Position numbers and translations under genes: made by a program. From the sequence record PQ529420: a DNA stretch of 64,000 bases; one strand, 5' to 3'. A model generated the notes under the pieces. That model saw only the letters and a program-made list of their open reading frames with translations. It did not search any database and was not told where the DNA came from. Below are positions 55,512 to 57,037 of this stretch, piece by piece; within the stretch, counting starts at the first letter, position 1; each line of letters opens with the position of its first letter. The stretch comes from Escherichia phage Eryne.

Positions 55512-55582
55512 AATGATAATCATTCTTATTTATAGCTGATTATTTATGCAATAAACTGCATAATGCAATAATGACAATCATT
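55512..55582. promoter_or_regulatory. two Fur-box-like palindromes
   Basis: AATGATAATCATT (perfect 13-bp palindrome, identical to E. coli Fur box core) and AATGACAATCATT, both followed by CTTA. Confidence 0.45.
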
Positions 55583-55599
55583 CTTAACTTAAGACCATC

Positions 55600-56450
55600 T
55601 AACTTATAAAATAATAAGTTATCTAACTAAATTAAAGCTAATTATCTTACTTTTATTTATAACATACTGTTACTATCTTATTGATAACCTTATATTAAAC
55701 AACAATAATCAATGTAAATCATTACTAAGCTAACTATAATCTATCTAACCCTTAAAACTATAACTATAATCTATCGAATTGTTGCACAAAGTAACTATTA
55801 AATTGTTAGTAACATTGCTAAATAATTAATATCCTATCTATTTATGATCTAATCTTTACCTTCCTATTTATCACCTAACTAATCATTTCATACAGTAATC
55901 ATTCCATATAGTAATCATTTCATACAATAACTATAACAAGAAATATAATTCGCAAGCGTATCATTAGCAGCCTATGCCGGACACATAGGCGGCTAATAAT
56001 AACGCAACTACACACCCCACATAATAACCATCACCGATAGTTATTATTTGTGTTTATGTAGCTTGCAACAATTGCAAGCGCAACAATATACATGGTATAT
56101 TGTATCCCTTACATTGTTGCGGTGCGTTATTATTAGCTAATGTTTAGAACATTGGCTATAATATAAGCTAAATAATAAGCTATACAATAATAAACATCGT
56201 GAATAATGATGCTGATGATCATAATGCGCCACCTTCCAGGGGGGCGCTATGTGAACACAAAGAAATCTTTCTTGTCAAGAAAAATATTAACACTATTGCG
56301 CAAAATTATTTATAACTGAATAGATGATTTTTCATACTATTGCCCCTAATTACTTACTATTTGTTGCAATGTATTCCCCCTATTTGTTGAGCCTATTCTC
56401 TTAAAAGCGCAATAAATCAGAATTATCTTGATTTTTAGGTAGTTTTATAG
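55600..56450. repeat. AT-rich non-coding region with short tandem repeats and inverted repeats
   Basis: No ORF >60 aa; TAATCATTTCATACA x3, AACTATAATCTATC x2, palindromes GCTTGCAA-caa-TTGCAAGC and GCCTATG...CATAGGC. Confidence 0.6.
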
Positions 56451-56462
56451 TATAGAAAATAT

Positions 56463-56481
56463 GCAAATGATAATCATTATC
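56463..56481. promoter_or_regulatory. Fur-box-like site (17/19 match to GATAATGATAATCATTATC)
   Basis: gcaAATGATAATCATTATC read directly. Confidence 0.5.
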
Positions 56482-56647
56482 AGCTATCTTCCACGGGTGG
56501 CACTATTTCACGCCAGATCATTTCATTTGGCAAGGTGTATATAGATGTTTAGACTTGCCAAGTTATTGATTTACTTAGAATTTATCTGTTTTGTTGTGAG
56601 TAGTACCTTTCTTGCTCAGAAAATAATCAAAAGTCTTATAAGTCATT

Positions 56648-56680
56648 GAATGATAATGCAAATGATAATTATTCTCATTG
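56648..56680. promoter_or_regulatory. Fur-box-like hexamer array
   Basis: GAATGATAATgcaAATGATAATTATTCTCATTG; two AATGATAAT units. Confidence 0.45.
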
Positions 56681-57037
56681 ATATTTGAGGGGGACGGTCG
56701 GCAGAAATCGGGGGGCGCTGAAAATCGCGTTAAGCACCTCTCGCAAGCGAGCAGTATTTTGCGGCAAGTTATTGATATTATTGGCTTTACGCTTATGAAA
56801 AGGGGTGTGTCGAAATAAATCGGGTATACCGGAAAATTTTTGTGGCATAGATATTTATTTGTCTATATTATGTACAAAGGGGTGTGTTAAAAATATTAGG
56901 TATATATAGAATAATTGATAGGGAAATCCTATACTAATTCCTCTATTAATGATGTTTCTAGGTTGCTGTTCTTGTAATAGATGAAAAGACGCTATATGAT
57001 GTGTGGCATGAAACGTAAATTTATAAAGGAGTCTGAT

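Follow-up and report, generated by a model that had tools for sequence, protein, structure and literature searches.

Introduction

The RNA polymerase of phage T7 pauses at the concatemer junction, where a simple hairpin is found. We know of no phage RNA polymerase in phi92-like phages, and to our knowledge the duplication of exact terminal repeats is poorly understood outside T7. The present analysis concerns a gene-free region in a 64,000-nucleotide stretch of the genome of Escherichia phage Eryne (sequence record PQ529420; the whole stretch is called the window). This region contains one copy of a direct terminal repeat (DTR) and, upstream of it, a branched palindrome that probably serves the formation of the genome ends.

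A T7 hairpin with the terminal repeat was seen during infection, according to a passage in a later article (PMC4281155, citing Chung & Hinkle 1990). The T7 junction and the present locus are alike in having exact DTRs that need duplication from a single concatemer copy, and in an inverted-repeat structure on the right-end side of that copy. The T7 structure is a simple hairpin, whereas the structure described here is a branched three-arm palindrome of ~180 nt, known from sequence alone. For phage N4, hairpin priming at the right end is described in a passage of another article (PMC3896407). N4 is similar in its DTRs of a few hundred bp and in inverted repeats near the right end that are implicated in end replication, but its repeats lie at the very 3′ extremity, whereas the present element is located ~600 bp inward from the right physical end. 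The hairpins of the adeno-associated virus (AAV) inverted terminal repeat and of poxvirus telomeres also have a closing stem around smaller palindromic arms. They share with the element an action at the DNA level and a link to end processing, both being presumed here. Those hairpins are terminal and occur in flip and flop forms, whereas the present element is internal and has one orientation.

The closest described systems are the phages of the same subfamily. Genomes of Stephanstirmvirinae overall "terminate with direct terminal repeats" (PMC12695924). Short DTRs were reported for Salmonella phage UAB_1 (PMC11350853), a 342-bp DTR was found with PhageTerm for BME3 (PMC12210895), and a 317-bp DTR was given for FKP3 (PMC11663894). 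The packaging and DTR function of the region is already known for the genus. In the subfamily Vequintavirinae, the map of rV5 has a comparable grey "non-coding" box without explanation (PMC3606486), and coverage and PhageTerm placed a 514-bp DTR of KPP-1 at 116,316-116,829 (PMC9862379). An earlier reading of the Eryne sequence (the original prediction) had marked 55520-56980 as an AT-rich non-coding region, whose tandem repeats and nested palindromes suggested a replication origin, a packaging site or a non-coding RNA (ncRNA) locus.

Results

Region 55200-57100 was compared with public records by BLAST and showed 93-96% identity to more than 45 Escherichia phages of the genus Justusliebigvirus (phi92-like, Stephanstirmvirinae), for example 95.8% to Paula. 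By this similarity the source phage is a Justusliebigvirus. Four records labeled "Campylobacter phage" (MG065639, MG065645, MG065656, and MG065689) were 94.8% identical over the full region, and their host label appears doubtful.

Left and right DTRs of 343 bp are annotated in UAB_1. Bases 1-343 of UAB_1 and its right-end copy aligned base for base with 56390-56732 of the window, with UAB_1 base 1 at 56390, and the flanking sequence diverged precisely at both edges. In an alignment of the gap from 10 genomes, both edges were invariant islands amid diverged sequence, TGTTG^AGC on the left and AAAWTCGCGTTA^AGCAC on the right (^ marks the cut). Several records found by distant BLAST begin or stop within the gap. 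The record of PD06 stops at ...TGTTG, which is the left boundary; those of UAB_1, phi1_175008, and WPEC1 stop at ...CGCGTT(A), which is the right boundary; and that of BME3 stops at the equivalent of 56731. The edge-to-edge distance was 321-344 bp in 17 genomes. No 16-mer of the DTR recurs elsewhere in the window, showing that one copy is present, as expected of an assembly that collapses both ends. GTTR^AGC is common to both cuts, in the same register. By homology to phages with determined ends, the terminase cuts at two fixed positions, 56389/56390 and 56732/56733, and the packaging site proposed in the original prediction was essentially right. Compared with the DTRs of UAB_1 (343 bp), BME3 (342 bp), and FKP3 (317 bp), the repeat is ~97% identical in sequence and has identical boundaries, and its position is the same, with the gp248 homologue on one side and the first early gene on the other. 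There is no essential difference, the repeat being present once in the window through assembly collapse and its ends being placed by homology.

Additional copies of boundary sequences were observed around the DTR. Phapecoctavirus, the sister genus, and Klebsiella and Citrobacter phages carry the left-boundary motif TGTTGAGC 2-3 times, at intervals of 58-69 nt (loci L006, 2394/2452; L008, 2489/2556/2625; L035, 2213/2280/2349; L033, 2225/2292; L038, 2170/2228). The window has a partial duplicate of this boundary, CTATTTGTTG, at 56357 and 56380. The FKP3 record (L035, PP895363.1) carries a full DTR-like copy at 2349-2692 and a second partial copy ~500 nt further on that reaches the end of the record (2349-3178 overall), and the ends of the published 317-bp DTR of FKP3 may differ from the conserved boundaries. 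Inside the DTR, an inverted repeat TTGGCAAG-N19-CTTGCCAA lies at 56527-56562, of which the right arm, with ATTGAT after it, is conserved across genera. CAAGTTATTGAT recurs at 56765, just right of the DTR.

The nested palindromes upstream of the DTR are one element, consisting of a hairpin and, after it, three arms within a closing stem (Table 1). The original prediction had listed the GCCTATG..CATAGGC inverted repeat, the GCTTGCAA-caa-TTGCAAGC palindrome and a longer inverted repeat as separate items. All motifs that it named were located, the longer repeat as 15 fully complementary nt, but these palindromes are in fact parts of one covarying branched structure, in which they fold jointly with two more stems. 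For the plus and minus strands of the 192-nt block, the respective fold z-scores were −6.5 and −8.2 with RNA parameters and −6.95 and −8.89 with DNA parameters; none of 200 shuffles folded equally well. Within the gap, conservation is highest in this block, which holds the most conserved 50-nt bins and has 72% invariant columns in 55965-56014.

The pairing of the element was then compared among relatives. A covariance model matched the window exactly once, and each related genome likewise once. RNAalifold detected compensatory change in 13/48 pairs among 10 sequences. Among 21 copies (18 distinct), 98.5% of the pair cells were standard pairs and 16 of the 48 pairs showed two-sided changes. None of 500 shuffles reached the observed values, and only 0-3 double-change pairs were left when the partners were slid by 1-3 columns. 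For example, GCCTATG/CATAGGC is replaced by CGCTACG/CGTAGCG, and ATAACCATC/GATGGTTAT by ATAACTATC/GATAGTTAT. In the closing stem, ..AACGCA/TGCGTT.. is replaced by ..AAGCCA/TGGCTT.., ..ACCGCA/TGCGGT.. or ..ATATTAAC/GTTAATAT... When IMG/VR was scanned for the pattern of the invariant hairpin, most matches were palindromes arising by chance, and only 5 came from true relatives. No description of the element was found in the searchable literature. The branched palindrome is apparently undescribed and is strongly conserved.

The element is tied to the terminus in position. It lies 190-470 bp upstream of the left cut (mostly 210-270 bp; 253 bp in the window) in all 17 Stephanstirmvirinae loci. Neighborhoods of gp248 homologues in IMG/VR belonged to Vequintavirinae and not to extra Stephanstirmvirinae, and they led to an analogous element. 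In the gene-free region of these phages, three arms are enclosed by a perfect inverted repeat of 18-21 bp, whose halves lie 164-217 nt apart. Compensatory changes were found in 11/56 pairs among 8 genomes, including PVP-SE1, GAP31, Mydo, Ro1, and KPP-1. In KPP-1, the branched element is 309 bp from the 514-bp DTR; the boundary sequences of that DTR bear only a loose and inverted resemblance to the cut motif. The order common to the two subfamilies is rightward genes, terminator, branched palindrome, ~300 bp and DTR. The Vequintavirinae thus have the same layout and the same closing stem with three arms (rV5, PMC3606486; KPP-1, PMC9862379), but they differ in having no significant sequence similarity to the window and in carrying the genes beyond the DTR on the opposite strand. 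With a covariance model (R1, no filters), the similarity between the two elements was marginal at best, at 17.7 bits. The predicted elements of the two subfamilies have the same topology; their homology is unproven.

The surroundings of the element were also examined. The statement of the original prediction that 55520-56980 has no open reading frame (ORF) above 60 aa holds, the longest having 57 aa (56675-56848, minus strand). Its interval lies inside gene-free DNA, but the true gap is wider (Table 1). The region is AT-rich as claimed: the GC content of the gap is 0.318, against ~0.38 for the whole window, and the gap is the lowest-GC part of the window (0.31-0.34). Curated annotations leave the gap empty, and it measures 1.5-2.0 kb in every relative examined, which covered both Stephanstirmvirinae genera and unclassified Klebsiella and Citrobacter members. 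The terminator near its left edge is annotated as such in Paula and is unchanged in 10/10 genomes. When the gap was aligned with Phapecoctavirus, no conservation of the small gap ORFs was seen. A 46-aa ORF just past the terminator (55395-55535), with AAGGAG ahead of it, is found in Justusliebigvirus only; its ATG and frame are missing in Phapecoctavirus, and it is probably no gene. Some records (PP925843, PP925835, PP925826, PV682554, and others) have 8-11 tiny "hypothetical proteins" across the gap, on inconsistent strands, and these were rejected as gene-caller overcalls.

Table 1. Features of the gene-free gap and its neighbors in the window, and elements of Vequintavirinae in their own loci (a dot marks features without an assigned strand; ^ marks the cut)
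Feature	Position	Strand	Basis or remark
phi92 gp248 homologue	54881-55264		Left neighbor of the gap
Gene-free gap	55265-57037	.	From the stop of the gp248 homologue to the Shine-Dalgarno-preceded ATG at 57038; ORF list
Strong intrinsic terminator, end of upstream operon	55280-55298	+	7-bp stem (6 GC pairs), then T-run
Fur-box-like palindrome 1	55509-55528	.	AAATGATAATCATTCTTA; in Phapecoctavirus as TGATAACCATTATCA
Conserved palindrome TTATGCA-N6-TGCATAA	55544-55563	.	Read from sequence; in invariant block 55553-55564
Fur-box-like palindrome 2	55567-55586	.	AATAATGACAATCATTCTTA; 15/19 match; weakly conserved
TAACTATAATCTATC, two copies	55731-55778	+	30 nt apart; lineage-specific
16-nt tandem repeat (TAATCATTTCATACAG)	55880-55930	+	3.2 copies; copy number variable
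Conserved branched palindrome	55956-56147	.	Folding, covariation, covariance model
Hairpin GCCTATG/CATAGGC	55970-55990		Part of branched palindrome
Closing stem, 15 bp	55992-56006/56123-56137		100% complementary, 116 nt apart
Arm A	56008-56011/56058-56061		With hairpin 56024-56044
Arm B	56062-56078		Invariant hairpin; GCTTGCAA-caa-TTGCAAGC palindrome at 56061-56079
Arm C	56079-56085/56115-56121		Extra hairpin 56084-56104 in Justusliebigvirus only
Left DTR boundary TGTTG^AGC	56385-56392	+	Cut 56389/56390; motif unchanged in 10/10 aligned genomes
DTR, 343 bp	56390-56732	.	Single collapsed copy; UAB_1 annotation and alignment
Invariant TCTTGATTT inside DTR	56426-56434	+	10-genome alignment
Fur-box-like palindrome 3 (best)	56463-56482	.	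GCAAATGATAATCATTATC, 17/19 of classical box; TGATAATCATTATCA, 15/15 of 7-1-7 core
Fur-box-like palindrome 4	56658-56677	.	TGATAATTATTCTCA, then invariant TGATATTTG; blocks 56639-56651 and 56671-56688
Right DTR boundary CGCGTTA^AGC	56726-56735	+	Cut 56732/56733; inside invariant block 56720-56737
AAAGGGGTGTGTYRAAA...GGTATA, two copies	56799-56892 (56799-56815, 56876-56892)	+	77 nt apart; upstream of first gene
First early-side gene	57038-57397	+	Opens run of small plus-strand genes
Vequintavirinae element, KPP-1	L039 2839-3044		
Vequintavirinae element, PVP-SE1	L040 1639-1857		
Vequintavirinae element, GAP31	L041 1621-1831		
Vequintavirinae element, Mydo	L042 1700-1958		
Vequintavirinae element, Ro1	L043 1700-1905		
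Vequintavirinae element	L030 5546-5751		

The direct repeats named in the original prediction were recovered, AACTATAATCTATC at 55731-55748 and 55761-55778, and TAATCATTTCATACA as a tandem array with period 16 and a Tandem Repeats Finder score of 81. Near-identical phages differ in the number of array copies (2 in Paula and arall, 3 in the window and inny), and Phapecoctavirus and Klebsiella phages lack any counterpart of block 55765-55915. Upstream of the element, both genera have an ATCATT core at ~16-nt spacing, which is the only part of the array that recurs in Phapecoctavirus. Judged from this comparison, the direct repeats and the tandem array are not conserved functional units, and the tandem repeats are slippage products.

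On the other side of the DTR, the leader of the first gene is the only place in the window with the AAAGGGGTGTGTYRAAA/GGTATA motif, and Phapecoctavirus retains the two copies. The GGGGTGTGT...GGTATA boxes are candidate non-canonical early promoter or operator elements. Sigma-70-like promoter matches were not enriched (14 found, 13.6 expected). A sigma-70 position weight matrix run on the alignment gave one partly conserved candidate in the DTR, TTGGCA-17-TAGACT at 56527-56555, and nothing convincing upstream of the branched element or of the first gene. The invariant TCTTGATTT inside the DTR may be a −35-box-like element or a terminase contact.

The Fur-like sites of the original prediction were all found; the four start at 55512, 55570, 56466, and 56661 and form one repeat family. 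The window was scanned with the classical Fur box (GATAATGATAATCATTATC) and the 7-1-7 core (TGATAAT-N-ATTATCA). With ≤2 mismatches, the core occurs 6 times against 0.93 expected, and 0/100 shuffles reached 6. For the classical box, 33 matches of ≥14/19 were counted and simulated sequence gave 5.2 (maximum 14), a ~six-fold enrichment. Three of the four sites are kept in Phapecoctavirus, with variation at different positions; palindrome 3 is present there as TAATAATCATTCTCA and is not kept in Klebsiella phage KP13-26. Several sites form adjacent hexamer arrays, as Fur boxes of E. coli do. Unlike those, they lie in the terminal repeat and gene-free regions of a virulent phage, and they are Fur-like by sequence match only. 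The palindromes, two in the DTR and two upstream, may be early operator or promoter elements, and host Fur would be their most likely binder. A second gene-free stretch, 43976-44736, contains three direct repeats of ~67-79 nt (44174-44394), then a nested palindrome of Fur-box-like hexamers (44412-44475) and then a GC-rich segment; no Rfam match was obtained for this stretch.

Discussion

Taken together, the region is probably the concatemer junction, or terminus, of a phi92-like phage genome, and the branched palindrome probably acts there as a DNA-level signal for end maturation. Replicating DNA would read, from left to right, the last right-end operon with its terminator, an AT-rich spacer of ~660 bp, the branched palindrome of ~180 nt, a further spacer of ~250 bp, one 343-bp copy of the DTR, a leader of ~300 bp and the first genes to enter the cell. 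By folding into the closing stem and its three arms, each strand could form a four-way junction, or a cruciform in duplex DNA. The palindrome would be a cis-acting signal for right-end maturation, through terminase recognition or structure-specific nicking. Alternatively, it could form a fold-back intermediate that aids DTR duplication, as was proposed for the hairpin of the T7 concatemer junction. After packaging of the T7 type, with exact direct terminal repeats, each virion DNA would carry the 343-bp segment at both ends. Early transcription would start from the incoming left end by way of the Fur-box-like palindromes and the GGGGTGTGT boxes.

Several observations weigh against this explanation or parts of it. 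The distance between element and DTR varies two-fold, which argues against a strict ruler. The inner arms have the same orientation in 21/21 genomes, all copies being colinear relative to their flanks, and the absence of flip/flop isomers of the asymmetric arms among them counts against a rolling-hairpin mechanism. Covariation of a palindrome could also come from hairpin-templated repair instead of selection, and RNA from either strand would give identical Watson-Crick covariation. The heptamer GTTRAGC, with 9 occurrences in the window against 14.7 expected, is not a rare sequence there and was rejected as the sole cut signal for lack of specificity; it cannot alone specify cutting, and further context must contribute. 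The ends of this phage are assigned by homology only, from a window with one collapsed copy. With regard to early control, promoters could not be placed convincingly, and only weak candidates lie near the Fur boxes, such as ATGCAA-18-TATCTT at ~56461-56490. Moreover, Vequintavirinae swap one Fur-like palindrome for a different sequence with pairing kept, indicating that structure, and not the Fur consensus, is conserved, at least in that subfamily.

The pRNA gene of phi29 is located beside the genome end, and 55956-56147 could in the same way be the gene for a structured ncRNA of ~180-190 nt, with the DTR as a mere neighbor. The strong compensatory covariation and the stable folding of both strands, the conserved unpaired stretches CAACTACAC and CGCTTACA, the single copy, and a size and multi-helix topology typical of functional RNAs are all in its favor. 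However, no Rfam family matched at any threshold: searches at permissive and gathering thresholds gave nothing at the gathering score, and the best matches by E-value were noise. A tRNA/tmRNA search found nothing. A consensus scan and the sigma-70 matrix on the alignment gave no conserved promoter upstream of the element and no intrinsic terminator downstream, on either strand, the sole terminator being that of the upstream operon. A plus-strand RNA would tolerate G·T and a minus-strand RNA A·C among half-compensated pair cells; 8 and 9 such cells were counted, in different helices, so that neither strand is preferred. In addition, the long closing stems are wholly Watson-Crick, without G·U, in 18 + 8 sequences (the 15-bp stem in all 18 distinct Stephanstirmvirinae sequences), which is unusual for RNA helices. 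The pattern fits selection, or hairpin-templated correction, on both strands. The balanced G·T and A·C cells, the all-Watson-Crick stem, and the lack of a flanking promoter or terminator and of an Rfam match favor a fold-back or cruciform at the DNA level, and the element is favored to act as DNA, not RNA. Of the ncRNA locus in the original prediction, the expected covariation was therefore seen, but for the structured block an RNA gene is disfavored, and we regard it as unlikely.

The AT-rich gap or the branched palindrome could also be a replication origin, at which hairpins or a cruciform load a T7-type primase-helicase and the repeats serve as iterons. The gap is the most AT-rich stretch of the window, is dense in repeats and palindromes with periodic ATCATT just upstream of the element, and the element is conserved across two subfamilies. 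On the other hand, the gap contains no DnaA boxes, and the iteron-like tandem repeats are variable in number and missing from the sister genus. The GC-skew check proposed with the original prediction was run and gave no origin signal: skew follows the direction of transcription, with no inflection beyond the strand switch near 39000, and it is likewise uninformative in rV5 (PMC3606486). The constant association of the element is with the DTR and not with replication genes. An origin, for which no positive support was obtained, is thus quite improbable here, and both the ncRNA and the origin are regarded as minority alternatives. It is also unlikely that the palindromes and repeats are mainly an operator array, by which host Fur or a phage repressor would control early promoters while the larger structure is incidental. 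Fur-like sites are enriched and clustered in two gene-free regions of the window, the best matching 17/19 and 15/15 of the consensus, and other palindromes are conserved as well (TTATGCA-N6-TGCATAA and the invariant GCTTGCAA-N3-TTGCAAGC). But operators keep sequence and not pairing, whereas here four helices with partners up to 130 nt apart change with complementarity kept, and a long-range stem of 15-21 bp has no operator logic. Control by an operator array can hold for the Fur-like boxes and yet leave the branched element unexplained.

A wider proposal can be put forward tentatively. The branched palindrome might represent an undescribed class of cis-acting DNA four-way junctions, of which the topology and not the sequence is common to phi92-like and rV5-like phages (~200 genomes), and which would direct right-end maturation or DTR duplication. 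Through the Fur-box arrays in the DTR and at 44.4 kb, a virulent phage would in addition be able to sense or titrate the iron regulator of its host.

With the DTR placed, the true start and end are defined for this genome and also for many records that are differently permuted. The phi92-, phAPEC8-, rV5-, and PVP-SE1-like phages make up two subfamilies that are widely used in therapy. A conserved, covarying branched palindrome a few hundred bp inboard of the DTR in both of them offers a concrete and mutable target for the question of how DTRs are duplicated. For phage engineering, removal of the "empty" DNA at this place might kill the phage. Through Fur boxes close to the consensus, the development of a lytic phage would be coupled to the iron status of its host, which is rare.

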